From: a virus
Direction: 5' to 3' (one strand)
Virus record (IMG/VR): IMGVR_UViG_3300034069_000634
Span: 1-64,000 of that record
Length of the DNA stretch: 64,000 nt
The notes under the pieces were generated by a model. That model was not told the DNA's origin. It searched no databases and worked only from the letters and a program-made list of their open reading frames with translations. Shown here piece by piece: positions 7,989 through 58,225 of this stretch. Position 1 is the stretch's first letter, and every line of letters begins with the position of its first letter. The position numbers and the translations under genes are program-made.

Positions 7989-8852
7989 ATGGCAGGCGGT
8001 ATCCCGTTTTCGCAAGCGCTTCAGATCATCGGCGGCGTCCCGCTCCAGAAGGTCGGGAGTGTCTTTGCGGAGAAGCTCTCGATCACGAAGCGCCTCGACG
8101 GCGGCGCCGTCGGCGACCTGATGAAGAAGGTCATCGCGGACGGCAATCTCTCCTCGATCCTTCAGAACCCTCAGGCCGCGATCACGAACGCGATATCCGG
8201 GCAACTCGGCGGGCTTGCGTCGCAACTCGGTAGCATTCCCGGGGCCTCGGGTCTGATCTCATCGCTCACCGGATCGACTGGGCTCGGTTCCGTCCTGTCG
8301 ACGTTCCAGGCGGCCGGGAACACGCTCGCGGGTCTTACGGGTGACGGCTCGGGGTTCTTTACCATGCTGGCGCACGACGCGACGGCACAGATGGCCGGAG
8401 AGGCGATGCCGGCTTCGGCACTGACCTCGGTCGTCACAGCTCCGCTCACGGCCTCGGGCCTTCTCGGGTCGATCCAGACTGTTCTTCCCCAGATCGTCGG
8501 TCAGGTCGTCGCCGGCACGCTCGACCCGACGACCGCGCAAGCCTGGGTCGATGGGGTTGCCGCGCAACTCTCCGGCATCGTTACGGCATCGAACGACGCG
8601 CTCGCTTGGTCGGCCGCGAATCACGTCCGGATCGCCGCCGTCGCGACGATCGGCGGGGCGCTTGCCGTGCCACCGGTCTTCGATAGCGCCGGAAATCGCC
8701 AGGAAGGGGCCGCCACGGGCTTTCAGGGGGTTTTGCAGTCGCTGGTACAGCCGAGCGCCGTAGGGCCTCTGTCGGATGCCCTGAACGCGCTCACGGCCGC
8801 GAAGCGCTACGATCCGGTCGATCCGGACGATTACACGAGCCTGGAGGGGTGA
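7989..8852 (+). CDS. Gly/Ala/Ser-rich structural protein
   Basis: 287-aa ORF in the baseplate block. Its TGA overlaps the first bases of repeat element copy 1. Confidence 0.5.
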   Translation: MAGGIPFSQALQIIGGVPLQKVGSVFAEKLSITKRLDGGAVGDLMKKVIADGNLSSILQNPQAAITNAISGQLGGLASQLGSIPGASGLISSLTGSTGLGSVLSTFQAAGNTLAGLTGDGSGFFTMLAHDATAQMAGEAMPASALTSVVTAPLTASGLLGSIQTVLPQIVGQVVAGTLDPTTAQAWVDGVAAQLSGIVTASNDALAWSAANHVRIAAVATIGGALAVPPVFDSAGNRQEGAATGFQGVLQSLVQPSAVGPLSDALNALTAAKRYDPVDPDDYTSLEG

Positions 8853-9018
8853 GGTACGGGTTCCAATTTACGCCAGGGATCCTGAAACTCTCTGGTACAA
8901 AGTACCATTCCGCTCCTGGATTTATATTCTTATCTTCTTCTTCTAGAGAGAGAATATATGTAAGGATTAAAACCGGTAGAGTTTCAGGATCCCTGCCGTA
9001 AATTGGAACCCGTACCTC
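8851..9018 (+). repeat. long-stem AT-cored palindromic intergenic element, copy 1 (candidate structured RNA or MITE-like)
   Basis: The two arms pair over about 42 bp with one C/C mismatch. The core is about 75 nt and AT-rich, and there is no ORF. It shares conserved asymmetric blocks with the copies at 27670 and 50776. Confidence 0.85.
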
Positions 9019-9032
9019 GGGAGGAGATCGCG

Positions 9033-9431
9033 ATGAGGGTAAGAAAAGTCGACGAGAACGGAGACATGGTCTTCGGCGGCGATCAGGCGGCATTCCTCCG
9101 GAACTCTCCGGATGCGGTTGCCCAGATCGTCGAGAGCCGCCTCAATCTCTGGCAGGGCGAGTGGTATCTCGATCTCTCGGACGGGACGCCGTACGAGCAG
9201 AACGTCCTTGGTCGTTATACGGCGAACGTCCGTGACGCCGTCCTTCAGCGCCGGATTCTCACGACACCCGGCGTCGATGCGATCAAGACGTACTCCGGCT
9301 TCTTCGACACGACGAGCCCGCGGGACTACAGCGTTTCCGTCGAGCTAAAAACCGCGTATTCAAGGGGCGGTAGTGCCAGCGGTGCGCCGACTCCGGCGGT
9401 TTTGAACACCAAGGTCGAATTTGGACGCTAG
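9033..9431 (+). CDS. small baseplate wedge protein (gp25/W / Mu gp46 position)
   Basis: A GGGAGGAG SD precedes ATG 9033. The LNLWQGEWYLDLSDGTPY pattern is typical of small baseplate proteins encoded before Baseplate_J genes. Confidence 0.45.
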   Translation: MRVRKVDENGDMVFGGDQAAFLRNSPDAVAQIVESRLNLWQGEWYLDLSDGTPYEQNVLGRYTANVRDAVLQRRILTTPGVDAIKTYSGFFDTTSPRDYSVSVELKTAYSRGGSASGAPTPAVLNTKVEFGR

Positions 9432-20661: not shown

Positions 20662-21757
20662 GAGCCTTCTCGCCGCCGCACTCGGGCTCCTCGTCTTCGC
20701 AGGCGCGCCGGCCGGTGCGTTCGTTCGGCAGAATGGGACAGGACAGCAGGGCATCGCCGGACCGACCGGGACTCCTGGCGCGAACGGCGCCGTCGGTGCT
20801 CAGGGTCCAATTGGCCCCGCCGGAAAGGATGGTCTTCCGGGTGCTCAGGGGCCAGCCGGATCGACAGGAGCGGCCGGCGCCAAGGGCGATACGGGTGCGA
20901 CCGGCACTCAGGGTCCGCAGGGCATTCCTGGCGCAAGTGGAGCAACGGGTGCGACTGGTCCGTCGGGTGCGACTGGTCCGTCGGGTGCAACGGGTTCGCA
21001 AGGAATAAAAGGCGATACGGGCGCGACCGGTGCGCAAGGAATTCAGGGCGCGAAAGGCGATACCGGATCCGCGGGGCCGCAGGGCGCCACAGGCTTGACA
21101 GGCGCGACCGGCCCGACTGGAGCAACGGGCGCGAAAGGCGATACGGGCGCAACGGGAAGCGTTGGCGCAACCGGCTCTCAGGGTGTGAAGGGCGACACGG
21201 GAGCAGCAGGAGCGACCGGACCGCAAGGGCCGATAGGAGCGACCGGCGCGACTGGCCTAACGGGTGCGACAGGCTCGGCCGGTCCTACAGGTCCGAAAGG
21301 CGATACCGGTGCGACAGGTGCCCAAGGGCCGATCGGCCTGACCGGAGCGACTGGTCCGACAGGAGCGACTGGTCCGACAGGAGCAACCGGTGCAACTGGT
21401 CTCCAAGGTGCTACGGGTGCAACTGGACCCGCCGGAATCGTCCCGACTTACGGCCCGAGCGGTCTTCGGACCGGCGCGAAGGTCTGGGTTGGATCGGTCA
21501 CAGCCTCGAACGGCCTCTGGTCCGTCTCGATCTCGTCCGCTGGATGCACGGCCGCGCCCTACAACGTTCAGGCCCAGGCCCAGGGCGTCGACGCGACCGC
21601 GGCCGGTGTCCGGATGGCGAACGTCTCGACGGTCACGACGACGACGATCTCCGGGAACGTCTCGCAGGCCGCAACGGTCTCGCTCCTCGGCGTGCTGTCG
21701 CTCAATCTCGCTACAACCGGAACGCCGACCGTCTTCATCGAGGCGTGGTGCAACTAG
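20645..21757 (+). CDS. secreted collagen-triple-helix-repeat protein
   Basis: 370 aa with a signal peptide, about 78 uninterrupted Gly-X-Y triplets, and a 106-aa globular C-terminus. Confidence 0.7.
20735..21436 (+). repeat. coding Gly-X-Y (9-nt periodic) tandem repeat
   Basis: GATGxTGxxG-type triplets run throughout. This region generates the long spurious ORFs seen in other frames. Confidence 0.8.
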
Positions 21758-25165: not shown

Positions 25166-25404
25166 CACTCACCTCCCAAGGCATATTCTGCCTTCCGGCC
25201 GCGACCGAGTTCCGACGAGCGGATGACCGGCCGCGGATCGTTCGAGGTCTTGAACCGCAGATACCGCATGATCGCGGAGATCGACGAGCGCCAGTAAGTC
25301 GGCCTCGGACGGTCGACGTAGAGGATCGCGGCGATCGCCTCCGCGTCGAGCGGGCCGCGTTCGAGCGCCTCCCGGATCTTTTCCTCGGACTTGGACAGTT
25401 TCAC
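25165..25404 (-). CDS. hypothetical protein (possible winged-helix)
   Basis: A GGAGG SD precedes a GTG start, which overlaps the SNF2 gene stop (GTGA). Confidence 0.45.
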   Translation of the reverse strand: MKLSKSEEKIREALERGPLDAEAIAAILYVDRPRPTYWRSSISAIMRYLRFKTSNDPRPVIRSSELGRGRKAEYALGGE

Positions 25405-27038
25405 GGTAGCGCCTCCAGCATCTCGCGATAATCGCCGATTCCGAGTTCCGATATACTCTTTTTTCTTTTCAGGTTCGCGAGAATCTTTCGGTCCCCGGAT
25501 CGGTTCGCGATCAGGTCGGTATGCGTGACGAGACCGCTCGCTCCGATCCGCTGGATCCGCTTCTCGCTCTGCCATCGATCGAGCGCTCGGTCGTCGTTCG
25601 AATAGTACAGGTCGGAGACGCACGCTCCCTGAAGGTTGAGGCCGGCGCCACCACATTGAGCATTTCCGACGAACACCTCGGCGCCCCGCGGCGAAAGGAA
25701 CGACTCGACGTTCTCGGCTCGCGCCTTGTCGGTCACGCCGCCGTGGTACTCGACGAACGTCCGTCCGATCCGGTCGAGGCGCTCGGCGATGAGCGCGATG
25801 TCCTGGCGGAACTTCGCCCAGATCACGATTTTCCGGCCGTCGTGCGCGTCGAGATACTCCTCCATCGCATTGAGCCGCGGGTTCTTGGCCGGCTCGACGA
25901 GGAGGTGAGCCCGACGATTCTCGTCGAGAACGAAGCCGTTCGAGATCTGTTGGATCTTAGAGGTCGCGACAGCCATGTTCGCGGCCGTAATCTCGGCACC
26001 GGATTCGAGTTCGGCGAGAAGCTCCTGTTTGAGCGCGCGCATCGCCGCGATCTGGCGCGGGTCGAGGTCGAAGGTCCACTCCTCGAAGACCGGCGGTAGG
26101 AGTCCGATGTCCTCCTGCGTCACCCGGAACGAGACCGGGTCGGTCAGACGCCGGAACTCGTCGATGTTGGTGTGGCCGACGACCTCCCGGCCCTCGTAAC
26201 CGCCCATCCGGCAGAAGCGTGCCCGGAAGGTCGTGACGTACTTGATCCCGAGGACCGACTCGTCGAGCCACTTCAACTGCGCCCATTCGTCGGTCAGGTC
26301 CTTGGCGATCGGCGTTCCGGTCAGGAGCGTTCGGACCGGGCTCGCGGCCTTCTTGCGGATCTCGTCCATCGCCCGCCAGCGCGCCGAGGCCGCGTTCTTG
26401 ATCTCCTGACTCTCGTCGGCGACGATGAACACCCGGCCGCGATGGGCAGTGACGAAGTCGAGCGCGGCGCGCTTGCCCTTCTCGGCCTTGGCGCCGTCAT
26501 AGTTGATCGCGAACACCTTCAGGCGCCCGTCCTTCACGAGAAGCGTCTCGGGAAGCCTGGACATCGGCCAGAAGGCACCGTCCCAGGCGTCGGAGCCGTA
26601 ATGCGCCGGGAATTGCTCGGCGATCCACTGCCGGTGCGGACCCTTCTTCGAGACGACGAGGACGGCGTCGATCCGGTTCTCGGCCCAGAGTTGCCCGGCC
26701 CGGTCGATCGCGACCTTCGACTTGCCCGTTCCCATGTCCATGAACAGGGCGAACCGGTCGAGCATCCGCCGGAGCGCCTCATCCTGATGCGGGAACGCCT
26801 TCGTCTTCGACACGTACGGCGGTCGGTCGGATTCGAACGCCTCGACCTCGGGCGTCGGATCAGGGGCCGCGACGCCGGGGAGCATCCGGATCCGTTCGAG
26901 GTTGTGGCCAGTCGGCTCGAAGTGCAGTCCTGCGGGGCTCCAGCGCCGACGGCCTTCGAGCCGGCCGGCGACGAACAGGACGTCGGGCGTCGCCGCGGTC
27001 CGGAGGAGAGCGGAGGTCTCGGTGAGTTCGAGGATCAT
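25401..27038 (-). CDS. SNF2-family helicase
   Basis: Motifs MDMGTGKSKVAI (Walker A) and DESQEIKN (DExx), plus C-terminal helicase motifs. The ATG is coupled to the deaminase stop. Confidence 0.8.
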   Translation of the reverse strand: MILELTETSALLRTAATPDVLFVAGRLEGRRRWSPAGLHFEPTGHNLERIRMLPGVAAPDPTPEVEAFESDRPPYVSKTKAFPHQDEALRRMLDRFALFMDMGTGKSKVAIDRAGQLWAENRIDAVLVVSKKGPHRQWIAEQFPAHYGSDAWDGAFWPMSRLPETLLVKDGRLKVFAINYDGAKAEKGKRAALDFVTAHRGRVFIVADESQEIKNAASARWRAMDEIRKKAASPVRTLLTGTPIAKDLTDEWAQLKWLDESVLGIKYVTTFRARFCRMGGYEGREVVGHTNIDEFRRLTDPVSFRVTQEDIGLLPPVFEEWTFDLDPRQIAAMRALKQELLAELESGAEITAANMAVATSKIQQISNGFVLDENRRAHLLVEPAKNPRLNAMEEYLDAHDGRKIVIWAKFRQDIALIAERLDRIGRTFVEYHGGVTDKARAENVESFLSPRGAEVFVGNAQCGGAGLNLQGACVSDLYYSNDDRALDRWQSEKRIQRIGASGLVTHTDLIANRSGDRKILANLKRKKSISELGIGDYREMLEALP

Positions 27039-27643
27039 CGACGACCTTCCGCCTTGTTGAGGTTTTCGATCATGCGGCCAGCGAAGACGTACCAAGTCCG
27101 AAGGGCCATATCCTCCGGCTTCAGGATCTCGCGGGATTCGATCGTCGAGCCCGATTCGGAAAGACGGCCGATCGCGTAATCATCGAAGCTCCAGCGCCGC
27201 GGCTCGCCTGAGACCTCGATGAATGCTGCCCCGTACGAAACTCCGGCCTCTCTGAGCATGTCAGACGCCGCGTCCCATTGCTCGTTGTCACCGCCGAACC
27301 GGCCAGGGCCGTATGTGAACCGAGAAACTCCTGCGGCGATCATCTCGCCAGCACAGGCCGAGCAGCACCGATGCGTGCAGTACACGGACGTGTTCTGCGT
27401 TCGGATCCCGTGATATGCGGCGGTAGCGATCAGGTTCCGCTCGGCGTGGTTCGCGAACAGGTACTTCCGTGGCCGCTCCCGCCGATCCGGGAGATCGCGG
27501 ACGCCAGGGGCCGGGCCGTTGAACGCCGTGAGCAGGACGCTCCGGCCGTTCGGCGCAACGAGAACGGCGCCGACCTTGGTCGCGTCCTTCGACTTCCGCG
27601 CGGCGTGCTCGGCGAAGCCGTACAGGTACTCGTCCCATTCCAT
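27035..27643 (-). CDS. dCMP (deoxycytidylate) deaminase
   Basis: HAERNLI (HAE) and CTHRCCSACAGEM (PCxxC-like) zinc motifs. Confidence 0.75.
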   Translation of the reverse strand: MEWDEYLYGFAEHAARKSKDATKVGAVLVAPNGRSVLLTAFNGPAPGVRDLPDRRERPRKYLFANHAERNLIATAAYHGIRTQNTSVYCTHRCCSACAGEMIAAGVSRFTYGPGRFGGDNEQWDAASDMLREAGVSYGAAFIEVSGEPRRWSFDDYAIGRLSESGSTIESREILKPEDMALRTWYVFAGRMIENLNKAEGRR

Positions 27644-27669: not shown

Positions 27670-27837
27670 CGAGGTACGGGTTCCAATTTACGGCAGGGAT
27701 CCTGAAACTCTCTGGCGTTTATATACGTATATATTCTTCTTCTTTATATATAAGATAAGAATATATATCCATAATAGAAAACGAACTCGCACCAGGGAGT
27801 TTCAGGATTCGAGGGGTAAATTGGAACCCGTACCTCG
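27670..27837 (-). repeat. long-stem AT-cored palindromic element, copy 2
   Basis: Read on the - strand, its 3' arm is 40/40 identical to copy 1. It lies between a stop codon (27851) and the AAGGAG SD of the deaminase gene. Confidence 0.85.
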
Positions 27838-32189: not shown

Positions 32190-33002
32190 CTAATACCCCG
32201 CCGCCTCCTTCAGACGGTCGAAGTAACTTTTCGGCAGGGTCAGGGTCACGGTGCCTTCGGTCTCATCGATATCAACCTCGGAGACGCGCAGCATTTCGCC
32301 GACGGCTTTCTTGAGCGAGGAGCGCGGCTCGCCACCCTCGACGTGCTTGGCTGTGGCGCGGGTCTTCCCGGCCTTCTTCGCGGTCTCGATGGCGCCAGCG
32401 AGATCGGACACGGCCTTGCCGGTGTCGCCCTCGGCCGCGCGAACGGTCTTCATCGCGAGGTCGGCAGAGACCTCGCCGGAGCGGACCATCGCCTTGACCT
32501 GTTCCGGGGCCGACTGAACTTCGAGCAACTGCACGACGCGCGTGCGGGTGATGCCGGTCTTCTTGGCGATCTCGCCCTCGTTCCAGCCGAGATCGAGGAG
32601 CTTCTTGAAGACCTTGCCCTTCTCGAACGGTGACAGCGGTTTGCTGGAGTTCCGGACGATCTGCGACAGGACGTGATCGGCCTCGGACGCGTACCGGGCC
32701 TCGGTCTGGACCGGGACGGTCTTGATCTCGGCTTTCAGGACGTCTCGGGCGTAGAGCGCTGCGGCGCGGCGACGGTGGCCGTTGGTGATGTAGGCGCGGC
32801 CGTCCTCCCAGATCGCCGTCATCGTCTCCTTCACGCCGACCTCGGCGATCGACTGCGCAAGCGCGAGATCGTCCTCGTCGTTCGGGTTGAAGTCGACGTC
32901 TCGGGCGTTCCAGCCCTGGCGGATGTGGAGGTCGTCGAGACTGATGCGGAACGTGTCCGAGCGGCCGGCGGCGATGCCCTGGATTCCGGTCTTCGTGGTC
33001 AT
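32190..33002 (-). CDS. parB: ParB-like nuclease-domain / partition-type protein
   Basis: ITNGHRRRAAAL (ParB box) plus an HTH (IAKKTGITRTRVVQLL). Confidence 0.7.
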   Translation of the reverse strand: MTTKTGIQGIAAGRSDTFRISLDDLHIRQGWNARDVDFNPNDEDDLALAQSIAEVGVKETMTAIWEDGRAYITNGHRRRAAALYARDVLKAEIKTVPVQTEARYASEADHVLSQIVRNSSKPLSPFEKGKVFKKLLDLGWNEGEIAKKTGITRTRVVQLLEVQSAPEQVKAMVRSGEVSADLAMKTVRAAEGDTGKAVSDLAGAIETAKKAGKTRATAKHVEGGEPRSSLKKAVGEMLRVSEVDIDETEGTVTLTLPKSYFDRLKEAAGY

Positions 33003-35807: not shown

Positions 35808-36097
35808 TACCGATTCCTCCTCGGCGCCGGCTGCGAGAAGTCCGGGATCCCGCCTTCTGTCTTCGACGGCGATGGCTCACGGACCGGGGCGTGTGGCGAT
35901 GTCGCTAAGCGGGCTTCCAAAGCGGCGCCCGTGTAGCGGGCGAAAGGGACGAAGACAGTTGAGACCGATCCGCCGTTTTCCCGCCATGCAACGATCGTTC
36001 GGTAGATCCATCCTCCAGGGACCGAGATTCGATCAATAAATGTCGAAACTTTGTCTCCAGGCTCGGCGTAGACAGGCATCCAAGGGCGTTCGCTCAT
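35807..36097 (-). CDS. hypothetical protein
   Basis: 96 aa, an internal start ATGA-coupled to the HNH gene. Confidence 0.45.
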   Translation of the reverse strand: MSERPWMPVYAEPGDKVSTFIDRISVPGGWIYRTIVAWRENGGSVSTVFVPFARYTGAALEARLATSPHAPVREPSPSKTEGGIPDFSQPAPRRNR

Positions 36098-36495
36098 CTC
36101 GTTCTCCTCTTCGGATAGCGCCGCTCGACGGCGCGCTTCAGGGCCGCGATGCCGCGGGTCTTCTTGGGATCGCCGAGCCGGACGGCACGGCGCTCGATCT
36201 TTCGGGCCTGATTCACCGTCTTCGGGACGACCTCGATGTGATCCGGGTTTACGCACAGCGAGAACTCGCACGTATGATCCCGGTCGTGCTCCGGCGGGCA
36301 ATCTCGGCCGCCGATCGCCTCACAGGCGAAGCGATGGGCGCGCACGGTCCGGTTGCCCAGACGGAAGCTCCCGTAGAACTTCCGGTTGCCCTTGCCGCGC
36401 GAGCGGGCGCCGGACCAGAACCAGCAACCGCTCGGGAGCTTCTCGACATAGCGGTAGAACCGCGCGACATCGGTGTCGGTGAAGGCGAGGGTCAT
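36094..36495 (-). CDS. HNH endonuclease (genome-typical GC)
   Basis: Contains HDRDHTCEFSLCVNPDHIEVVPKTVN. Confidence 0.7.
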   Translation of the reverse strand: MTLAFTDTDVARFYRYVEKLPSGCWFWSGARSRGKGNRKFYGSFRLGNRTVRAHRFACEAIGGRDCPPEHDRDHTCEFSLCVNPDHIEVVPKTVNQARKIERRAVRLGDPKKTRGIAALKRAVERRYPKRRTR

Positions 36496-36498
36496 CAA

Positions 36499-37379: not shown

Positions 37380-37411
37380 ATATAGCACCATCCCGACAAA
37401 AAAGAAAAGCG
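37380..37411 (-). promoter_or_regulatory. early promoter motif G: CGCTTTTCTTTT-N14-CTATAT
   Basis: Located 44 nt upstream of ATG 37336. It is divergent from motif I. Confidence 0.6.
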
Positions 37412-37461
37412 CCTTTTCCCGGTTCAGGTACGTTTTTTTTCGTGCGAAATCGCGAAAAAAG

Positions 37462-37493
37462 CGCTTTCCTTTTCCGCCGGGATCGGTTTAGAT
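37462..37493 (+). promoter_or_regulatory. early promoter motif I: CGCTTTCCTTTT-N14-TTAGAT (rightward)
   Basis: Located 59 nt upstream of ATG 37552, oriented toward the replication block. Confidence 0.55.
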
Positions 37494-42417: not shown

Positions 42418-42432
42418 GAAAGGATACTTGTG

Positions 42433-43077
42433 ATGAAGTTTCCGGTCGACACAATTCCGATGCCGGGTGGATGCATCGCGCAAGAGAAGTTTTACACGAA
42501 ATGGAAAATCAAAACCGGAGAGCCATTAATAAAAGGTCGACCAAAAATAATGTATGAAGGCGAGCAATGGCTCTCCTATAGGCTTAGTTATCACCTCAAC
42601 ATCGCCTGCATCGATCCATATCCGGACCTGAAGTCGGATCAACTCGTCCTTCACAGTTGCGATAACGGATGGTGTATCGCGCCAGATCATCTTCGGCTCG
42701 GGACTCAGACCGAGAACATGATCGATAAATCGGCGCGCAACGAGAACTACCGGGCGACGCGAGGGAAATTCTCAGAAGATGCTTTGCAGCGGATTCGTGA
42801 GGCGAACACCCGACGGAAAGGCGAGAAGCGAAAAGAAGGCTTCTGGCAAACTGAAGAGGGGCGGGCGAAAGCGGGAGAGGCTTCAAAAGCGAGATGGAGC
42901 GATAAAGAAAAAAGAGCTGCAACTATACAAGCAATGAAAGAGCGAGCGGCTTCAGAGCCAGCAAGAAAGAAAATACTCGCCGCACAAAAAGCAAGATGGG
43001 ATAAAGAAGGGTCTAGAGAAAGAGCCTCGTTAAAACTAAAGAAATACTGGGAAGAGAAGCGAGGTAATCTGTCGTGA
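42433..43077 (+). CDS. HNH homing endonuclease (AT-rich)
   Basis: HSCDNGWCIAPDHLRLGTQTENM core. The tail is Lys/Glu-rich and repetitive. Confidence 0.75.
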   Translation: MKFPVDTIPMPGGCIAQEKFYTKWKIKTGEPLIKGRPKIMYEGEQWLSYRLSYHLNIACIDPYPDLKSDQLVLHSCDNGWCIAPDHLRLGTQTENMIDKSARNENYRATRGKFSEDALQRIREANTRRKGEKRKEGFWQTEEGRAKAGEASKARWSDKEKRAATIQAMKERAASEPARKKILAAQKARWDKEGSRERASLKLKKYWEEKRGNLS

Positions 43078-47032: not shown

Positions 47033-49243
47033 ATGAAAAAGTTGAAGATTCTGACCGACGTTCCGTCCCTGCGCGACTACTTCTCGCGCATCGGCGCGGA
47101 GCCGAGGAGCCTGCGGACGGCGGTCGTGAAGGAGGTGTCGGGGAAATACTGGCGCGATCTCGCGGTGATCCGCGTCGACGAGAAGGGCGCGATCAGCGCG
47201 CCGCTTGAGTACGCGCCGACGGAAGCCGAGGCGGCTGCGATCATCGAGGGGTGTATCGAGTACGACTGGCCGAAGATCAAGCCGCTCGCCGCGCTGGGAT
47301 CGGTCCCGCCGATGGTGGCCGACGCGGATCCGAAGAACGTGTTCGAGTTCCGCAACGACGCGAACGAGATCGTGATGCTCCAGGTGCGGATGGAGCGCGA
47401 CAACGAGCGCGCTTATGTGCCGTGGACATATTGGGATGACGATGAGTGGCGCTCGGCCGAGCCGGACGGGCCGCTGCCGCTGTTCAACGCGCATCTCCTG
47501 AAGGGCGCCTCGACGGTGTTCATCCACGAAGGCGCGAAGGCGGCGCGGTTCGTTCAGACCATGGTCGAGGGCAAGACCCGCGAGGACCGGGATCGGCTGA
47601 AGGCGCACCCGTGGGGCCTGGAGATGACCGGCGCGGTTCATGTCGGATGGATCGGGGGCGCGATGAGCCCCGGCCGGACGGATTGGACGGTGATCAAGAA
47701 GGCCGGGATCGCGCGGGCGTTCATCGTCGCCGACAACGACGAGCCGGGGAAGTCGGCGGTCCCGAAGATCGCCCAGGCGCTCCGGTGTCCGACCTTCGCG
47801 ATCCAGTTCACCGACGAGTTCCCGGCGAGCTTCGATCTCGCCGACCGGTTCCCGGAGAAGATGACGAAGGGGCCATACTATACCGGGCCGGCGTTCCGGG
47901 AGTGTCAGCACCCCGCGACCTGGGCGACGGACCAGATCCCGAATCCGGAGGGCAAGGGACGGCCGCTCACGGTCCTGCGGGAATCGTTCCGGTCGATGTG
48001 GGCCTACGTCGAGGAAAGCGATCTGTTCGTCTGCCGGGAGATGCCGGAGATCCTCCGGCCGGAGCCGATCCTGAACAAGATGCTGGCCTCGTTCTCACAC
48101 GTCAACGAGACCTCGAAACTGATCGTGAAGGCGTATCAGGGGCGCTCGACCCGGCTGTGCTACCGGCCGGATCACGAGGGGCTTCAGGTCACGTTCCGGG
48201 GTTCGTCGGCGATCAACCTCCACGTCCCGGGGCCGATCAAGCCGGCGACCGGGGATCCGAAGCCGTTTCTGGATTTTCTGAGCTACCTGTTTCCGAACGA
48301 GCGTGAGCGGTACGAGGTCGAGCGGTGGTGCGCGACCCTGATCGCGCGGCCCGATATCCGGATGTCGTACGGGCTCCTGCTGATCTCCGAGAAGCAAGGG
48401 GTCGGCAAGACGACCCTCGGGGCCGGGATCCTGGCGCCGTTGGTCGGGGTCTCGAATGTCGGGTATCCCGGCGAGAACGACGTGACGGCCGCGTTCAACG
48501 ATTGGGTTGCGCACAAGCGATTGGCGATCGTCAACGAGATCTATTCCGGCTCGTCGTGGAAGGCGTACCACGCCCTGAAGTCCGTGATCACCGACAAGGA
48601 GGTCATGGTCAACCAAAAATACACACGTCAGTACGTCATCGACAATTGGTGCCACGTTCTCGCGTGCAGTAACTCCATGCGGGCGCTCAAGATGGAGAAC
48701 GACGATCGCCGTTGGTTCTATCCCGAAGTCACGGAATTGCCCTGGGGTAGGGATAAGTTCAATTTGTTTCGTGAATGGATAGATGCTGGCGGCCTTTCTA
48801 TAGTTAAAAGATGGGCGTTAGACTTTGGAGATTACGTGGAACCGGCGGAACGTGCGCCGATGACTGACCGGAAGAAGGAGATGATTGAGGGATCACGTTC
48901 CGAGGCTCAGGCAGAAGCTGCCGCGGTCGCCGAAGCACTTCGCGACATGAAGAATCCGGCGGCCGTTGCTTTGAAAGACGTTGTCGCTTTCGTGCGGTCC
49001 CATGCCCAGGGACGGGTGTTCGACAGCGATTACGAGTTGCGCAAGGCGATGGTCGATTGCGGCGTCGTGCCCCTGAAGAAGCGGATCAAGATCGGTGGCC
49101 GGTTGCAGTACGCGATCGCCAATGAGGCCCTGGCCGATGCGCTGCGGAACATGGGCAACGATCCCGAGGCCGATGGGCCGAAGGCCGCGCTCATCCGGGA
49201 GCGGATCGTGAAGTGCTCGGACCTGATCCATGGGGAGATGTGA
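47033..49243 (+). CDS. primase-helicase (Toprim + SF3/D5-like)
   Basis: Toprim-like IHEGAKAA..VADNDEPG and Walker A SEKQGVGKTT. Confidence 0.75.
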   Translation: MKKLKILTDVPSLRDYFSRIGAEPRSLRTAVVKEVSGKYWRDLAVIRVDEKGAISAPLEYAPTEAEAAAIIEGCIEYDWPKIKPLAALGSVPPMVADADPKNVFEFRNDANEIVMLQVRMERDNERAYVPWTYWDDDEWRSAEPDGPLPLFNAHLLKGASTVFIHEGAKAARFVQTMVEGKTREDRDRLKAHPWGLEMTGAVHVGWIGGAMSPGRTDWTVIKKAGIARAFIVADNDEPGKSAVPKIAQALRCPTFAIQFTDEFPASFDLADRFPEKMTKGPYYTGPAFRECQHPATWATDQIPNPEGKGRPLTVLRESFRSMWAYVEESDLFVCREMPEILRPEPILNKMLASFSHVNETSKLIVKAYQGRSTRLCYRPDHEGLQVTFRGSSAINLHVPGPIKPATGDPKPFLDFLSYLFPNERERYEVERWCATLIARPDIRMSYGLLLISEKQGVGKTTLGAGILAPLVGVSNVGYPGENDVTAAFNDWVAHKRLAIVNEIYSGSSWKAYHALKSVITDKEVMVNQKYTRQYVIDNWCHVLACSNSMRALKMENDDRRWFYPEVTELPWGRDKFNLFREWIDAGGLSIVKRWALDFGDYVEPAERAPMTDRKKEMIEGSRSEAQAEAAAVAEALRDMKNPAAVALKDVVAFVRSHAQGRVFDSDYELRKAMVDCGVVPLKKRIKIGGRLQYAIANEALADALRNMGNDPEADGPKAALIRERIVKCSDLIHGEM

Positions 49244-49955: not shown

Positions 49956-50254
49956 CCGACAAGAAACAGATCCCCAAGGAGATCGCGCGAGCATTTGAGG
50001 CGTTCGATATCGCCTCATCGACGCTTGCCGGTCAGATCTGGATCGCACCGGGCGATGGTGACGAGGCGGACAGGACGCAGGCCGAGCTTTTCTCCGAGAT
50101 CCGTCGAGCCCTGATCGCCGCCTACGACGCAGGCTTCGCGGCCAGTGGCGAGGAGTGGAACGGCGAGTATCCGGACGCCGAGGACCGGAAGGAATCGTAC
50201 GAGCGGACGCGGGCCGAGTGGCTTGAGGATTTTGCGAAGGAGGGAAAGCGATGA
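49952..50254 (+). CDS. hypothetical acidic protein
   Basis: 100 aa, ATGA-coupled. Confidence 0.45.
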   Translation: MTDKKQIPKEIARAFEAFDIASSTLAGQIWIAPGDGDEADRTQAELFSEIRRALIAAYDAGFAASGEEWNGEYPDAEDRKESYERTRAEWLEDFAKEGKR

Positions 50255-50748
50255 AGGGTGTTTCAGGATACCGGCCGCCGAACGTGACGAAGCTGTCTGT
50301 TCGAAGCGCCGTTCAGAGAGAGCCGAATCTGCACAAGAGGAGGCTTTTCAAAAAGGAAAGCGACTTAAGATCCTGGGTCAAAGAGCGTACGCAGGATCCA
50401 TTCTGGATCGAGCCGACGCGCGGTTCGACGATCGGCGTGCCGGACGTCTACGCCCATGATAGCGGCGGAGTATGGGTCGAACTCAAACACGGAGACTGCA
50501 AGGACCGGCGCCTTCTCCAGTGGAAGCCGAGACCGGGGCAATACGACAAGATTAGAACGTTGCGAAATCGAGGGGCACGGGTCGGTGTAGCGATCGGTTT
50601 TGGCAATCTCATTTTCGTGACCAGCGACCCCGAGCTTTTCCGGGTCGGATGGGCGGAGATCCGGGCCGAGGATCTCATCGACGGGCGAGACCCGGATGCG
50701 TGGTCTCGCGTGATCGAAACGATCCTAAACGACTGTCAGAAAACATAA
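50251..50748 (+). CDS. VRR-NUC / PD-(D/E)xK-type nuclease (resolvase-like)
   Basis: ESDLRSWV..PDVYAH..GVWVELK pattern. Confidence 0.5.
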   Translation: MKGVSGYRPPNVTKLSVRSAVQREPNLHKRRLFKKESDLRSWVKERTQDPFWIEPTRGSTIGVPDVYAHDSGGVWVELKHGDCKDRRLLQWKPRPGQYDKIRTLRNRGARVGVAIGFGNLIFVTSDPELFRVGWAEIRAEDLIDGRDPDAWSRVIETILNDCQKT

Positions 50749-50775
50749 AAACGCTGAAAAACGGGCAAAATTCTG

Positions 50776-50935
50776 CGAGGTACCAGTTCCAATTTTTCGC
50801 ATGTTCCTGGGTACGGGAGCATTTTAGTCTCTGGATTCATATTCTTATCTTCTTCTTATAATAAGAAGATTATATATAAGGATTAAAACCGGGAGAGTCC
50901 CTGCCTCCGAGGGGTAAAAGTGAACTGGTACCTCG
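50776..50935 (+). repeat. long-stem AT-cored palindromic element, copy 3 (diverged)
   Basis: Core blocks are 26/27 and 16/16 identical to copy 1. The outer stem is retained through compensatory changes. Confidence 0.8.
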
Positions 50936-51045
50936 CCTCGACCCTCCCGACCGCCCCGGATTTTGCCGTTCCACCTATTCCCGTTAGAACTATCCCGTAG
51001 GAAGCCCCAGGACGCCCGTCCCGGCTCGAACCGAGGAATCCGACC

Positions 51046-51840
51046 TTGAACCGTCTCAAGCCCGTCCTGGCCCCGTTTCTGGGCGCCCTAGCCCTCCTCG
51101 CGACCCTTCTCGGTCCCGTGTTCGCGGAAACCTCCTGTCCCGCGCACTACGCCGACGGGAAGCCGCCCGAACTCGCCCAGGCCGACCTCGGCGCGATCGA
51201 GCTTTGCTCCGAGGCGTTCGCCGTCGCCGTGACCCCCGCAACCATGAACCCGGTCTACGCGGCCGAGCACCTCACGCCCGCCGGCCTTGCGGGCGCGGTC
51301 CAGATCCCGCGGGTCGACGCCTTCCACCCCGACGAGCGCGTCCCGTACGACTTCCGCGCCGAGCTTCGGGACTACGCCGCCTCCGGCTTCGACCGCGGCC
51401 ACATGGCCCCGGCCGGCGACATGCCGACCCCGAGCGCGCAGCATGAGAGCTTCGCCCTGTCGAACATGGTCCCGCAGAACCCGAACCTGAACCGTGGCCT
51501 CTGGGCGAAGATCGAGGAGCGCGTCCGCCGCGAGGTCGTCCTTCGGAAGGAAGGCTTCGTCGTCACCGGCCCGGCGTACTCGGGCGCCCCGAAGCGGCTC
51601 AATGGCCACGTGATGATCCCGACGCGGATCTGGAAGGCGGTCTACATGCCGGGCGATGCCGCGACGAACACCCCGGCGCTCGCGGGTGCCTACATCGTCG
51701 ACAACGCCGCCGATGCGAAGGCCGAGATCGTCTCGATCGGTGCACTGGCGCGCACGATCGGCTTCGACCCGATCCCCGGAGCGCCGGCTGAGGCTCACAG
51801 TCTCGCCAACCTTCCGGCCGTGACGGAGGCGTCTCGATGA
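51046..51840 (+). CDS. secreted DNA/RNA non-specific endonuclease (NucA/EndoG family)
   Basis: TTG start, a signal peptide, and the FDRGHMAP..SNMVPQNPNLNRG active-site motifs. Confidence 0.75.
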   Translation: MNRLKPVLAPFLGALALLATLLGPVFAETSCPAHYADGKPPELAQADLGAIELCSEAFAVAVTPATMNPVYAAEHLTPAGLAGAVQIPRVDAFHPDERVPYDFRAELRDYAASGFDRGHMAPAGDMPTPSAQHESFALSNMVPQNPNLNRGLWAKIEERVRREVVLRKEGFVVTGPAYSGAPKRLNGHVMIPTRIWKAVYMPGDAATNTPALAGAYIVDNAADAKAEIVSIGALARTIGFDPIPGAPAEAHSLANLPAVTEASR

Positions 51841-55044: not shown

Positions 55045-55497
55045 ATGCCCGGCGGCGGACCCCTTCGCTATCGCGTGGAATACTGCGATCTCCTCGAAGA
55101 GAAGATGGCGGAGGGATTCTCCATGACCGCGGTAGCCGGCCTGATCGGCGTCGCGAAGAACACCCTGTGCTACTGGGTGAACCATTACCCGGAGTTCAAG
55201 GAGGCGGTCGAGCGTGCCAAGTCGAAGCGCCTCCTCCACTGGGAGAAGATCGCGCTCGATATCGCCAAGAACGGCGGTCCGGGCTCGCGCGCGACGATGA
55301 CCACGTTCGGCCTCCGGAACGTCGGCATGGGCGAATGGAGCGACCTCCAGCGCCAGGAGATCTCCGGCCCCGACGGCGGTCCGATCAAGACCGAGACGAC
55401 GAGCGCGCGAGAGCTTCTCGCGGCACGGCTCGCTCGATTAGCACCTTCTTCAGAGTCTGGAGAAAACGAATCCGATTCTGAAGAAGATAACAAATGA
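55045..55497 (+). CDS. terS: terminase small subunit
   Basis: HTH (MTAVAGLIGVAKNTLCYWV..YPEFKEAVERAK). Its position upstream of TerL supports the call. Confidence 0.7.
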   Translation: MPGGGPLRYRVEYCDLLEEKMAEGFSMTAVAGLIGVAKNTLCYWVNHYPEFKEAVERAKSKRLLHWEKIALDIAKNGGPGSRATMTTFGLRNVGMGEWSDLQRQEISGPDGGPIKTETTSARELLAARLARLAPSSESGENESDSEEDNK

Positions 55498-56072
55498 CTT
55501 GTTTAATCGAAGGCTGTGAGAACAAGACTATCGCTCGTGGCCTTTGCTCTTCTCATTATCAAAGATTAAGAAAATACGGGTCCCCATTCGGGGGTCGTCC
55601 GACGTTTGTCGGAGAAATAAAGGAATATTTATATAATTTTGTTCTCCCGTACGAAGGAGAAGACTGCATCATTTGGCCCTATTCAATTCATAGAGGCCGA
55701 GCATATATGACTTTAAAAGGTAGATCCAATATAGCGGCCAGAATTATTTGTGAAGAGACTCAAGGATTTCCCCAAGATTCAAATTTAGATGCGGCTCATT
55801 CTTGCGGTAATAAAATATGTGTAAACCCAAATCACATTCGTTGGGCAACAAGAAAAGAAAATGAAGCCGATAAGATAATTCACGGTACAAAAAATCAAGG
55901 AGAAACGGTTTGGAATTCTAAACTGAGAAAAGAAGACGTTTTAAAAATATTGCAATTAAAGGGAGAAAAGACCGGAGTTGAAGTAGCTAGGTATTTTGGC
56001 CTTCATCCGACGACGGTTCGGATGATTTGGCGAGGCAAGAGATGGGCGCACTTATCTCAAATCGCTCCTTAG
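55494..56072 (+). CDS. HNH homing endonuclease (AT-rich) between terS and terL
   Basis: AAHSCGNKICVNPNHIRWATRKEN core. The ATGA overlaps the terS stop, and the 3' end overlaps the terL start. Confidence 0.75.
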   Translation: MTCLIEGCENKTIARGLCSSHYQRLRKYGSPFGGRPTFVGEIKEYLYNFVLPYEGEDCIIWPYSIHRGRAYMTLKGRSNIAARIICEETQGFPQDSNLDAAHSCGNKICVNPNHIRWATRKENEADKIIHGTKNQGETVWNSKLRKEDVLKILQLKGEKTGVEVARYFGLHPTTVRMIWRGKRWAHLSQIAP

Positions 56073-58225
56073 CTCAGAACGTCGCGGCGCTGTCGAAGGA
56101 AGATCGCGACCGGATTCTCGCGAAGCTGACGAAGGATCAGTCCGAGGAACTCCTCTATGACTGGAAATTCTGGGCGCGCCCGAATCAGCTGGCGCCGCCC
56201 GGCAACTGGATGACGTGGCTCGCGCTCGCCGGGCGCGGGTACGGCAAGACGGAGGCCGGCGCTCAGTGGGTCCGTGACGAGGTCGCGAAGGAGACTCATA
56301 CGATCGCCCTAGTCGCCGAGACCCAGAAGGATCTTGAAGAGGTCATGGTCCGGCGCCTGATCTCGATCTATCCGCCTGACGAGGCTCCGATCGTTCGATA
56401 CAAGCCCGTCCGCCTCGTGTGGCCGAACGGTTCCGTCGCGTACGGCTATAACGGGACCGAGCCGAATCAGCTTCGCGGTCCGCAGTTTTCGTTGGCCTGG
56501 GTCGACGAATTGGCGAAGTACCGCTACGCCCGAGAACTCTGGGACATGCTCATGTTCACGATGCGGTCGGGGACGAACCCGCGCGTGTTCGTGACGACGA
56601 CCCCTCGCCCGATCCCGGTCCTCCGCGAGATCATTAAGGATCCGACGACGACCGTTACGCACGGATCGACCTTCGACAACGCTGGAAACCTTCCTGCGCA
56701 ATTCCTTGAAAAGCTGAAGGCTCGATACGCCGGGACCCGTCTCGGCCGCCAGGAACTCAACGCCGAGATCCTTGATGACACCCCCGGCGCGCTCTGGGAC
56801 CGCGACGTGATCGAGAAGGCCAACGCGAAGCGCACGATCCCCGACATGAAGCGGGTCGTCGTTGCGGTCGATCCGTCCGGCACCCGCGGCGAGAACGAGG
56901 ATGACGGCGATGCGATCGGAATCGTCGTTGCGGGCAAGGGCGTGGATGGCCGTGCCTATGTGCTCGCCGACCGGACGTGCAAGCTGTCGCCGAACGGATG
57001 GGCTCGCCGCGCCGTCGACGCGTACCGGGTGTTCCAGGCCGACCGCATCGTCGCCGAGACGAACTACGGCGGCGCGATGGTCGAATCGACGATCCGCACG
57101 GCCGATCCGAAAGTACCCTATACCGAAGTCAAGGCGTCTCGGGGTAAGGTGATCCGCGCCGAACCAGTCGCCGCGCTTTACGAGCAGTGCGTCGCCGCCG
57201 GGACGTTGATCGCTTGCGAGCGTGGACAGATACCGATTGAGGCAGTTCGAGAAGGCGACCGTGTTTGGACGCGGGCGGGCTTAAAGCCCGTCCTTTGGGC
57301 GGGTCAAACCGGCGTGCAAAAAACCATTCAAATCGAAGCCTCTGGGAAAATTCTTAGGCTGACTGAAAATCATCCGGTTCTCACGACGGATGGATGGATC
57401 CATGCTGGACAACTTGCTCATAAAGAGCGTACCGTCTTCGCATGGCGATCAAATGCGAACTTTGTGAAGCGCCCATTAGCGTTCGAAAAGGTCGAACGCT
57501 CTGTCGATCGTGCGGCGCGCTTCGACGATGGCAGAACAACCCTCGACCGGCTAAGAGGGCTTTTGTCGAGTTTGAAGGGCTGCGCTACTATCGACAGCCA
57601 GACGGCTATTGGCGGGCCTCTCGCCATGGCGGGAATGAACTCCTGCATCGAGCCGTCTGGAAATCGCATCATAAAAAGCCGATCCCTGATGGATGGCATG
57701 TCCATCACAGAGACGAAGATCCAGGGAATAACGACCCTGAAAACTTACTTGCGATGCCTCACGGAGAACATTCTCGACACCATCACCCGAATGGCCTCAA
57801 GACCATTGGACGGACAAAGGTCTGCGCCGAATGCGAAAAAGATTTTTTCGCGGTTTGGGGTCGGCAATGGATATGCTCCGACGAGTGTCGACGTGTGCGA
57901 CACGCCCGAGAGGAGCGAGAGCGTCGAGCCCGTGTTCAACCTTCATGTTGCGGATCAGCATGAGTATGTCGCAAACGGCATTCTCGTGCATAACTGTCGC
58001 GTGAGCCACGTTCAGCCGTTCGACGAGCTTGAGGACGAGATGTGCCAGATGACGCGCGACGGGTTCACTGGTGAAGGATCGCCGAACCGCGTCGACGCGC
58101 TCGTCTGGGCGCTCACCGAACTCATGCTCGATGAGCAGAAGCGCGAGATCAGGTTTACCCCTGAGGCGATCCAGCGCCTCGCGCCGTCGAAGCCGAACCG
58201 CTTCGCGATAGGACGCCGCCGATGA
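56027..58225 (+). CDS. terL: terminase large subunit interrupted by an intein (exteins 56027..57187 + 57995..58225)
   Basis: LAGRGYGKTEAGAQWV Walker A, and AWVDELAK. The C-terminal ALYEQ|..|CRVSH is split by the intein. The start is ATG 56027 or 56042. Confidence 0.85.
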   Translation: MARQEMGALISNRSLAQNVAALSKEDRDRILAKLTKDQSEELLYDWKFWARPNQLAPPGNWMTWLALAGRGYGKTEAGAQWVRDEVAKETHTIALVAETQKDLEEVMVRRLISIYPPDEAPIVRYKPVRLVWPNGSVAYGYNGTEPNQLRGPQFSLAWVDELAKYRYARELWDMLMFTMRSGTNPRVFVTTTPRPIPVLREIIKDPTTTVTHGSTFDNAGNLPAQFLEKLKARYAGTRLGRQELNAEILDDTPGALWDRDVIEKANAKRTIPDMKRVVVAVDPSGTRGENEDDGDAIGIVVAGKGVDGRAYVLADRTCKLSPNGWARRAVDAYRVFQADRIVAETNYGGAMVESTIRTADPKVPYTEVKASRGKVIRAEPVAALYEQCVAAGTLIACERGQIPIEAVREGDRVWTRAGLKPVLWAGQTGVQKTIQIEASGKILRLTENHPVLTTDGWIHAGQLAHKERTVFAWRSNANFVKRPLAFEKVERSVDRAARFDDGRTTLDRLRGLLSSLKGCATIDSQTAIGGPLAMAGMNSCIEPSGNRIIKSRSLMDGMSITETKIQGITTLKTYLRCLTENILDTITRMASRPLDGQRSAPNAKKIFSRFGVGNGYAPTSVDVCDTPERSESVEPVFNLHVADQHEYVANGILVHNCRVSHVQPFDELEDEMCQMTRDGFTGEGSPNRVDALVWALTELMLDEQKREIRFTPEAIQRLAPSKPNRFAIGRRR
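57188..57994 (+). mobile_element. Hint-type intein (269 codons) in terL
   Basis: Cys1 (CVAAGTLIA), block B (LTENHPVLT), and a C-terminal GILVHN followed by Cys+1. Confidence 0.8.
57442..57963 (+). CDS. HNH endonuclease encoded in the -1 frame inside the intein
   Basis: 173 aa with two CxxC zinc ribbons and an HVHHRDEDPGNNDPENLLAMPHGEH core. The frame differs from terL. Confidence 0.7.
   Translation: MAIKCELCEAPISVRKGRTLCRSCGALRRWQNNPRPAKRAFVEFEGLRYYRQPDGYWRASRHGGNELLHRAVWKSHHKKPIPDGWHVHHRDEDPGNNDPENLLAMPHGEHSRHHHPNGLKTIGRTKVCAECEKDFFAVWGRQWICSDECRRVRHAREERERRARVQPSCCGSA

Follow-up and report, generated by a model that had tools for sequence, protein, structure and literature searches.

A palindromic element and its family at conserved gene junctions of uncultivated phages

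The 64,000-nucleotide stretch of viral DNA analyzed here (positions 1 to 64,000 of IMG/VR record IMGVR_UViG_3300034069_000634, hereafter the window) contains three long palindromes, and the third of them, copy 3, raises the question of what such an element is doing in the gap between two genes. The first-pass annotation of the sequence had described copy 3 as a diverged copy of copies 1 and 2, with an outer stem kept by compensatory changes around an almost invariant core, and had taken it for a functional structured nucleic acid. Sequence comparison indicates that the three copies belong to a family of ~110- to 175-base palindromes in a clade of uncultivated phages, undescribed as far as the libraries that we searched show. 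Across this family the palindrome is maintained, not decaying. We consider action at the RNA level, as a boundary within transcripts, the most likely reading, with a role at the DNA level as its alternative.

The stem, core, and inner arms of copy 3

The window holds exactly three elements, which are its three longest local inverted repeats (Table 1). Copy 3 lies in a gap of 297 nt (50749 to 51045), as the first-pass annotation had stated. Its outer stem is 14 bp long and carries two compensated substitutions: GG has become CA at 50784-50785, matched by CC to TG at 50926-50927 on the other arm, so that one G-C pair is replaced by C-G and the other by A-U. The CA/TG variant is unique to copy 3, the other close copies (copies 1 and 2 and four in related phages) having GG/CC in 6 of 6 cases. 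The hexamer GGTACC occurs only twice in the 64 kb (5.9 occurrences expected), at 50779-50784 and 50927-50932, and both occurrences arose from the compensated change in this stem.

The near-invariance of the core blocks relative to copy 1 was also confirmed; shuffled sequences gave an expectation of ~0 chance matches for both core-block patterns. The hairpin formed by ATCTTCTT and AAGAAGAT was found at the apex as described. A further hairpin, within the 5′ inner arm, holds the inner box GGGTACGGG, which is also present in a related phage, Ga0182225_1000001 (IMGVR_UViG_3300017684_000001). This 65,679-bp viral contig, called the related phage below, is collinear with the window at 72 to 82% DNA identity, and the proteins of the two phages are 75 to 80% identical.

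The inner arms of copy 3 are mosaic. In an alignment of the close group, the 5′ inner arm TTCGCATGTTCCTGGGTACGGGAGCATTTTA resembles the arm TTGGGTCAAAAGTGGGTACGGGTCCGTTTTA of the related phage, and the 3′ end carries AAAGTGAAC, again as in the related phage. In its middle (CCCTGCC..GTAAA), the 3′ arm follows copies 1 and 2 and includes 8 inserted nucleotides that match a variant found in copy 2. Presumably these arms reflect exchange between copies. Because the inner arms are chimeric, only 14 of the 29 stem positions that we scored are Watson-Crick paired, with 4 G·U pairs in addition. This is the poorest pairing in the close group; the orthologue of copy 3 in the related phage has 28/29. The predicted RNA fold of copy 3 has a free energy of −62.2 kcal/mol (z = −6.2), compared with z = −12.8 for copies 1 and 2. 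Retained in copy 3 are the basal stem of 14 bp, the pyrimidine/purine hairpin at the apex, and the core blocks.

Copy 3 is not simply a diverged version of copies 1 and 2, as had been proposed. It is orthologous to the element found at the junction that is conserved most widely in the family, and its inner arms are chimeric. The first-pass annotation had also read conservation of the unpaired core as a signature of function; the sequence identity between copies 1 and 3 stands, but with mosaic arms it may stem from exchange between copies. Copy 3 is identical to that in the window in an independently assembled genome of this phage (Logan SRR23972086). The contig of that assembly (L111, with L110) breaks inside copy 1, 43 nt ahead of the sheath-initiator gene, which is consistent with collapse of the copy 1 and copy 2 repeats in assemblies.

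A family of palindromes at three junctions

We found the related phage with the gapped palindromic pattern GAGGTACNNGTTC N{125,155} GAACNNGTACCTC, in which two NN pairs were left free and yet were complementary in every real match. It has an element at 3/3 window junctions: upstream of the sheath-initiator/baseplate gene, upstream of the dCMP deaminase and SNF2 helicase genes, and past the nuclease-like gene, ahead of Endonuclease_NS. The outer 13 bp are identical in the two phages. The inner stem of ~28 bp has an entirely different sequence in the related phage (ACTTTTTTGGGTCAAAAGTGGGTACG...), common to all its copies, and is still 28-29/29 paired. The third copy of the related phage differs from its other two by several changes, each of them compensated (G to A with C to T; AAAGT to ATTCT with ACTTT to AGAAT). 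Six other matches to the gapped pattern were left out as unrelated palindromes or coding coincidence (L025, L026, L031, L032, L029, and L028), the first four of them having haloarchaeal-looking acidic proteins and a GC-rich core.

Further loci were fetched by way of the primase, the SNF2 helicase, and a 398-amino-acid open reading frame (ORF; 9435-10631) downstream of the baseplate wedge gene. Distant phages, with 60 to 65% protein identity in the primase and 42 to 51% in the helicase, also have long hairpin elements, at two of the junctions. One follows the nuclease-like gene (L040/41, L039, L037, and L034-36), and the other lies directly upstream of the helicase gene (L043, L045/47, L046, and L048) and is absent in two lineages (L044 and L049). 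The placement of copy 3 between two nuclease genes, emphasized in the first-pass annotation, thus holds for the family on its upstream side, where the junction that follows the nuclease-like gene is conserved; on the downstream side the gene varies, and in most relatives terminase genes are found there. The outer box of the distant elements, (A)GGTTCCAAGTTC(C), consists of two tandem heptamers and is the ancestral outer box of the family. The window elements retain GGGTTCCAATTT, with GAGGTAC added outside.

Our last scans, with the pattern GGTTCCAAGTTC N{115,145} GAACTTGGAACC, yielded a further 15 viral loci, plus a phage-like contig of 52 kb that has two copies. By homology to window proteins, these loci all map to the helicase or the nuclease-like/terminase junction. 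All 30-odd phage copies thus lie at three orthologous junctions and none at a nonhomologous site, the sole polymorphism being the absence in the two lineages named above. Exact 16-nt scans of IMG/VR with TAAGGATTAAAACCGG and GAGGTACNNGTTCCAATT returned only chance matches in unrelated low-GC phages, a blastn search with copy 1 found no match among GenBank phages, no relatives were found by way of the 165-amino-acid nuclease-like protein, and the words of the box sequence had no relevant match in the literature. Rfam 15, with its hammerhead, twister, pistol, and hatchet families, gave 0 matches in the whole window at gathering scores and none overlapping the elements in related loci. Permissive scans of the copies returned only far-sub-threshold plant and animal microRNA precursor models, which are generic long hairpins. 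The family could join RNA and repeat-family libraries. A perfect ~55-nt palindrome with a tRNA gene inside it, at the very end of a contig from a metagenome-assembled genome (MAG; L116:6680-6847), is probably an assembly fold-back artifact and not a member.

The layout of the family, from the outside inward, is a conserved box, a variable but paired inner stem, and often a second box, GGTTCC (GGGTAC in the window). In the center, a pyrimidine tract pairs with a purine tract across a short loop. On the 3′ side, many members also have a box, TATA(T)A(A/G) or CTATAGAG. The predicted fold of every member is a long irregular rod, and the minimum free energy of the sense strand is below that of the antisense strand in 11/15. 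Their GC content is 33 to 48%, regardless of a genome GC content of 47 to 62%. Every element lies between codirectional genes, and in copies 1 and 2, rel_s1, rel_s2, L126, L130, L132, and L048 the 3′ end is 2 to 27 nt from the next Shine-Dalgarno sequence or start codon. Copy 1 ends 14 nt ahead of the ATG of the sheath-initiator/baseplate gene (9033-9431). Copy 2 lies ahead of the gene for dCMP deaminase (27035-27643, minus strand), with that for the SNF2 helicase (25401-27095) coming next. Since its core reads as the reverse complement of the copy 1 core, copy 2 is a minus-strand copy, pointing the same way as the minus-strand genes around it. Relative to the genes, the core has one orientation in the window, the related phage, and most others and the opposite one in L125/L046 and L127, so the orientation is preferred and not obligatory. 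A stricter rule, in which the purine tract is the longer one and the core is always in sense orientation, is ruled out by these inversions and by L119, in which the pyrimidine tract is longer. Because the element is quasi-palindromic, orientation calls for the window lineage versus the members that we term class A are ambiguous.

The first-pass annotation had stated in advance that stem mismatches accumulating without compensation in further copies would make copy 3 a decaying repeat. RNAalifold, run on a MAFFT alignment of class A, recovered only the invariant outer box because the arms were out of register. We therefore built an alignment in arm register, cutting the arms of 23 distinct members without gaps from the conserved box inward and scoring 29 stem pairs. 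Standard pairs filled 80.7% of the cells, compared with 63.5 ± 1.4% after shuffling (0/500 shuffles reached the observed value) and 28.6 to 54.6% when the registers were slid by 1 to 3 columns. Double-sided changes were seen at 25/29 pairs (19.0 ± 1.7 shuffled, 0/500 reaching the observed value) and in 124 cells (46 ± 6 in shuffles), and the covariation score was 0.452, versus 0.163 shuffled and at most 0.186 in slid registers. Uncompensated decay was thus not seen, and it is on the double-sided changes and the excess of paired cells that we conclude that the palindrome is maintained. Part of the earlier reading as a functional structured nucleic acid follows, namely, that pairing is maintained and the junctions are retained. 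The nature of the structure does not follow, as an inverted repeat will covary whether it serves as a hairpin in RNA, as a hairpin or cruciform in DNA, or as a pair of protein sites or has arms that copy each other.

Table 1. Positions of the elements and of associated features (window coordinates unless a locus is named)
Feature	Coordinates	Strand	Remarks
Copy 3, whole palindromic element	50776..50935	+	Third-longest local inverted repeat in window; orthologue L033:12950-13102 in related phage
Copy 3 outer stem, 5′ arm CGAGGTACCAGTTC	50776..50789	+	CA where other close copies have GG
Copy 3 outer stem, 3′ arm GAACTGGTACCTCG	50922..50935	+	TG compensates 5′-arm change
Copy 3 hairpin within 5′ inner arm, ATGTTCCTG GGTA CGGGAGCAT	50801..50822	+	No partner in 3′ arm
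Copy 3 core block 1, pyrimidine tract CTGGATTCATATTCTTATCTTCTTCTT	50831..50857	+	26/27 identical to copy 1
Copy 3 apical pyrimidine/purine hairpin	50847..50870	+	ATCTTCTT (50847-50854) / AAGAAGAT (50863-50870)
Copy 3 core block 2 TAAGGATTAAAACCGG	50877..50892	+	16/16 identical to copy 1
Copy 1	8850..9019	+	~45-bp near-perfect stem; starts on stop codon of ORF 7989-8852
Copy 2	27670..27837	-	Ends 27 nt ahead of dCMP deaminase ATG
ORF of 165 amino acids, weakly nuclease-like	50251..50748	+	Upstream of copy 3; homologues precede element in distant relatives
Secreted Endonuclease_NS gene	51046..51840	+	Downstream of copy 3; TTG start at 51046; 110-nt C-rich leader; Pfam E = 1.5e-36
Type II hammerheads	L126:5912-8111 (5); L130:4777-6299 (2); L134:3494-5278 (2)	gene strand
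Bacterial heptamer arrays	L113:2907-3073 and 5373-5390; L115; L117:7801-7994; L118:4918-5066; L120; L121:1419-1577; L122
Promoter-like sites (seven)	24593, 29273, 31927, 33069, 36750, 37090, 37410	-	Each ~40-55 nt upstream of start codon
Promoter-like sites (two)	37463, 52828	+	Divergent pair at 37.41/37.46 kb

A possible RNA boundary or DNA site

The element is a palindrome kept by compensatory change and retained in synteny between cistrons, and it lacks the hallmarks of a promoter, a terminator, or a transposon. From there on, we infer transcription through it, folding in vivo, and cleavage or protection. The explanation that we rank first, tentatively and at somewhat less than even odds, is that it is an intercistronic RNA hairpin serving as a processing or stability boundary. 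Sitting between two genes of the same orientation, it would be transcribed within a polycistronic mRNA and would there fold into a long rod-like hairpin. The basal stem would close just past the upstream stop codon and a few to ~100 nt ahead of the next ribosome-binding site. Host RNase III, which is specific for double strands, would cut the stem, and/or the stem would block 3′ exonucleases, and the cut or block would uncouple the amounts of the upstream and downstream cistrons. We put this reading first because of the position relative to stop codons and ribosome-binding sites, the rod fold, the freedom of the inner stem to change under conserved pairing, the synteny, and the presence of hammerhead ribozymes in the same context.

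T7 and its relatives have several paralogous RNase III processing hairpins in the intercistronic spacers of polycistronic operons, syntenic and in sense orientation. The elements described here likewise occur several per genome, are syntenic, and have stems predicted to be long enough for RNase III (hairpins of at least ~20 bp in intercistronic spacers of codirectional operons, as at T7-type sites). Unlike the T7 hairpins, they are 2 to 3 times longer (110 to 175 nt), have a basal tandem-heptamer box and a pyrimidine/purine apical helix, and show no sequence similarity to them.

Type II hammerhead ribozymes (RF02276, 40 to 51 bits against a gathering score of 37) occur in three related phages, in spacers of the operon leading into the helicase-junction element (Table 1); none is present in the window. 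Perreault et al. (PMC3088659) read arrays of this kind as a means of dividing long phage transcripts into mRNAs of gene length, and they describe a hammerhead in haloviruses HF1/HF2 that lies 13 nt upstream of the start codon of a helicase gene. The hammerheads indicate transcription of these spacers and the use of RNA processing in the clade, and they may do in neighboring spacers of related phages the same job as the hairpin. Elements and hammerheads occupy the same kind of spacer position, in L126, L130, and L134 within the same operon. The elements nevertheless lack a hammerhead core or an Rfam ribozyme match at any threshold tried, and they are rod-like, not a compact junction. If they act at the RNA level, they would be a new, strongly covarying, phage-specific processing or stability element at the boundaries of the early, replication, and late blocks of an uncultivated clade, and they would offer a natural experiment, comparable to the hammerheads in the same operons, in how phages cut long transcripts.

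Several observations weigh against an RNA boundary. The inner stem of copy 3 is mostly unpaired. Scored in the sense orientation, there were 24 G·U and 15 A·C cells (P = 0.2; 19 and 22 in an earlier count), that is, no strand asymmetry, and one-sided (wobble) changes were rare beside double-sided ones, as expected from arm-to-arm copying of DNA. In the window lineage, the central third of the element is only 16 to 35% GC in a genome of 61% GC. The basal stem is conserved in sequence as well as in pairing (GGTTCCAAGTTC, two tandem heptamers), which pure structure does not explain; such conservation is needless for RNase III and suggests a sequence-specific factor. The three copies are also evenly spaced around the genome. 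An RNA boundary thus leaves the conserved heptamer box, the AT-rich center, and the missing wobble asymmetry without explanation, and a site acting in DNA explains them.

Such a DNA-level cis element, to which we would give perhaps one chance in a few, could be a palindrome with an easily melted center and inverted protein-binding boxes, used as an origin, as a recombination start (cruciform), or as a protein site. The herpesvirus oriL/oriS palindromes and the SPP1 oriL/oriR pair are analogues. The herpes simplex origins are palindromic, have an AT-rich centre, and lie between divergent genes. The elements resemble them as ~150-bp palindromes with an AT-rich center and conserved inverted boxes, present in 2 or 3 copies near replication genes, a layout that would suit a palindromic origin, and they differ in lying within codirectional operons and in having an inner stem sequence free to change. 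In favor of DNA, the stem boxes are conserved on both arms, and all copies in a genome share a variant, as if co-evolving with one phage protein; the element persists in L125/L046 and L127 with its core inverted; and replication genes lie next to the two most conserved sites (the primase/nuclease-like block and the SNF2 helicase).

The spacing of the copies, at 8.9, 27.7, and 50.8 kb in the window and at 6.7, 30.7, and 52.6 of 65.7 kb in the relative contig, leaves gaps of 19 to 24 kb in both ~65.7-kb phages. Three points placed at random would have so large a smallest gap with a P of ~0.01 to 0.02, a post hoc figure, and the same spacing would result from three gene modules similar in size. 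Other facts also speak against a DNA site. An inner stem of ~28 bp that differs wholly between phages with such similar proteins, and yet is complementary in both, fits pairing and not a protein site. Copy 1 is located within the late operon for tail and baseplate genes, the elements border on stop codons and ribosome-binding sites in the manner of RNA elements, and no initiator or origin-binding protein was identified. If the elements do act in DNA, they would show where replication originates or recombination begins in a phage group for which no such sites are known.

The heptamers of the outer box also occur outside phages. The last scan returned loci from Acidobacteriota MAGs (on contigs of 3.4 and 2.8 Mb), from a MAG of Verrucomicrobiales, Rhodopirellula sp. 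SM50, a MAG labeled Streptomycetaceae, and a low-GC bin. In these, the 12-mer lies within intergenic inverted arrays of tandem heptamers (GGTTCCA/AGTTCCA/AGTTCAA) that flank ~100 nt, and four of the loci have further such arrays elsewhere (L113, L115, L120, and L122). The arrays may be a host repeat similar to the repetitive extragenic palindromic (REP) sequences or to the short tandemly repeated repetitive (STRR) sequences, the latter being tandem heptanucleotide repeats in intergenic regions of cyanobacteria. Like STRR sequences, they are intergenic tandem-heptamer arrays, (A/G)GTTCCA; unlike them, they form inverted, hairpin-forming pairs and are found in Acidobacteriota, Verrucomicrobiales, and Rhodopirellula, not in cyanobacteria. 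Any relation to the phage elements may come down to the shared 12-mer, which is the only link. The shared box may help to assign hosts to these phages. It is also conceivable, though we regard it as rather improbable, that the element is the cis site of a dedicated sequence-specific system shared by phages and bacteria. Sharing of this kind would account for the inverted arrays of (A/G)GTTCCA heptamers in Acidobacteriota, Verrucomicrobiales, and Planctomycetes genomes. One possible version is a new phage replication or recombination start, with a cruciform cut by the adjacent nuclease-like protein; another is a new RNA-processing module, protein guided or self-cleaving, that replaces hammerheads at key junctions.

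Could the elements be selfish, that is, nonautonomous repeats resembling MITEs (miniature inverted-repeat transposable elements) or REP sequences, which would have spread into the phage lineage and be kept by self-maintenance and copy-to-copy conversion, with side effects but without function for the phage? REP sequences and bacterial interspersed mosaic elements (BIMEs, including integration host factor [IHF]-binding RIP units), enterobacterial repetitive intergenic consensus (ERIC) sequences, and Neisseria Correia elements act as mRNA stabilizers, attenuators, RNase III targets, or DNA sites for gyrase or IHF. They share with the phage elements the form of imperfect palindromes of ~100 to 170 bp in transcribed intergenic spacers, with inverted terminal units around a distinct center. 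They differ in being of high copy number and dispersed in cellular genomes, the phage elements being found in 2 or 3 copies at fixed orthologous junctions, without a GTAG/RAYT signature and, in the window copies, without a clear TA duplication. REP/BIME sequences are marked by high copy number and by a conserved GTAG end that a RAYT transposase recognizes; the window has three copies in its 64 kb and lacks a GTAG end, and its 39 scanned ORFs include no RAYT-like gene.

Viral genomes are known to harbor MITEs (PMC11602168). Consistent with an element of this kind, the phage copies are small, are several per genome, and have terminal inverted repeats (arms of 14 bp in copy 3 and ~45 bp in copies 1 and 2); their GC content stays constant whatever that of the genome; the arms are mosaic among copies 1, 2, and 3; the helicase-junction copy is present or absent; TA-like flanks occur in several class A copies; the same heptamer forms inverted arrays in bacterial genomes; and the genome harbors other selfish elements (three HNH genes and an intein). 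The TA...TA flanks of class A, however, are indistinguishable from an extension of the palindrome. No target-site duplication was found at the window copies (flanks T/G, C/G, and C/G), a Pfam scan of 39 window ORFs revealed no gene for a transposase, an invertase, or an RNA polymerase, and every phage copy found lies at one of the three orthologous junctions. Pairing, moreover, extends along the whole stem and not the termini only and has been retained over deep divergence in compact genomes. We therefore think a purely selfish element unlikely.

Least probable of all, with only a slim chance in our estimation, is a regulatory cassette, either an (invertible) promoter in the AT-rich core or a nut- or put-like terminator/antiterminator checkpoint between temporal classes: many members have the TATA(T)A(A/G) or CTATAGAG box 44 to 58 nt ahead of the 3′ end, the core mostly keeps one orientation, and, by a rough ORF map and the positions of homologues, the window and the related phage each have one copy in a leftward and one in a rightward operon (compare lambda nutL/nutR and HK022 putL/putR), but a sigma-70 scan found 0 sites in each of the three copies, no T-run follows the outer stem in the window copies or most relatives (TTTTT only in L131 and L124), two lineages have the core inverted, no recombinase gene is nearby, and there is no Rfam regulatory similarity. 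A search for near-identical genomes that might reveal inversion yielded only Logan SRR23972086; core inversions were seen only between lineages. The phage has what appears to be a promoter family of its own, AAAAnnGCTTTTCTTTT-N14-TATAcA (also written GCTTTTCTTTT-N14-TATAcA), with nine sites scoring 42 to 56 by position weight matrix and scores of <12 elsewhere in the window. The element cores score 7.0, −3.6, and −3.3 and were rejected as promoters of this family. Between the divergent promoters lies a palindromic stretch (37390-37483; AAAAGAAAAGCGCC...GGCGCTTTCCTTTT), which contains GGTTCAGGTACG, like the element boxes in reverse order.

Flanking genes and the window phage

The genes on either side of copy 3 fared differently on inspection. 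The downstream gene, described in the first-pass annotation as a TTG-initiated secreted endonuclease with a leader of ~110 nt, is indeed an Endonuclease_NS gene with that leader, and its N terminus looks like a signal peptide. The upstream gene had been called VRR-NUC-like. Its product matched a PHROG endonuclease (E = 2.6e-4) and, at E = 0.13, the nuclease in PDB entry 4qbo, and there was no match to Pfam even at E ≤ 5; we retain the term nuclease-like and not the family name.

The window is nearly the whole genome of a high-GC (~61%) tailed phage, a myovirus of ~65 kb. The nearest cultured phages are only ~35% identical in DnaE, so there is no annotated relative. In a rough ORF map, plus-strand structural genes extend to ~21 kb, minus-strand early genes occupy ~21.5 to 37.4 kb, and plus-strand replication and packaging genes begin at 37.5 kb. 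The genes identified include those for a sheath-like DUF3383 protein, sheath-initiator/baseplate proteins, a portal, and a TerS-like protein. There are also genes for a DnaE-type polymerase, a DUF5906 primase-helicase (47033-49243), SNF2 and UvrD helicases, the dCMP deaminase, and a ParB-like protein (32190-33002). Several methylases and HNH endonucleases are also encoded.

The large terminase gene (56027-58225) contains an intein (Hint, Intein_splicing, and Vint domains) between its ATPase and nuclease parts. Three genes resemble HNH_3/His-Me homing endonucleases, at 36094-36498 (minus strand), 42430-43077 (plus strand), and 55494-56072 (plus strand), the last of them flanked by the TerS-like gene and TerL. 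In the related phage, an HNH-like island of low GC content is present at L033:4150-4450. Finally, a long run of 9-nt-periodic GGN repeats at 20819-21435, a collagen-like Gly-X-Y coding repeat, probably belongs to a tail fiber gene.

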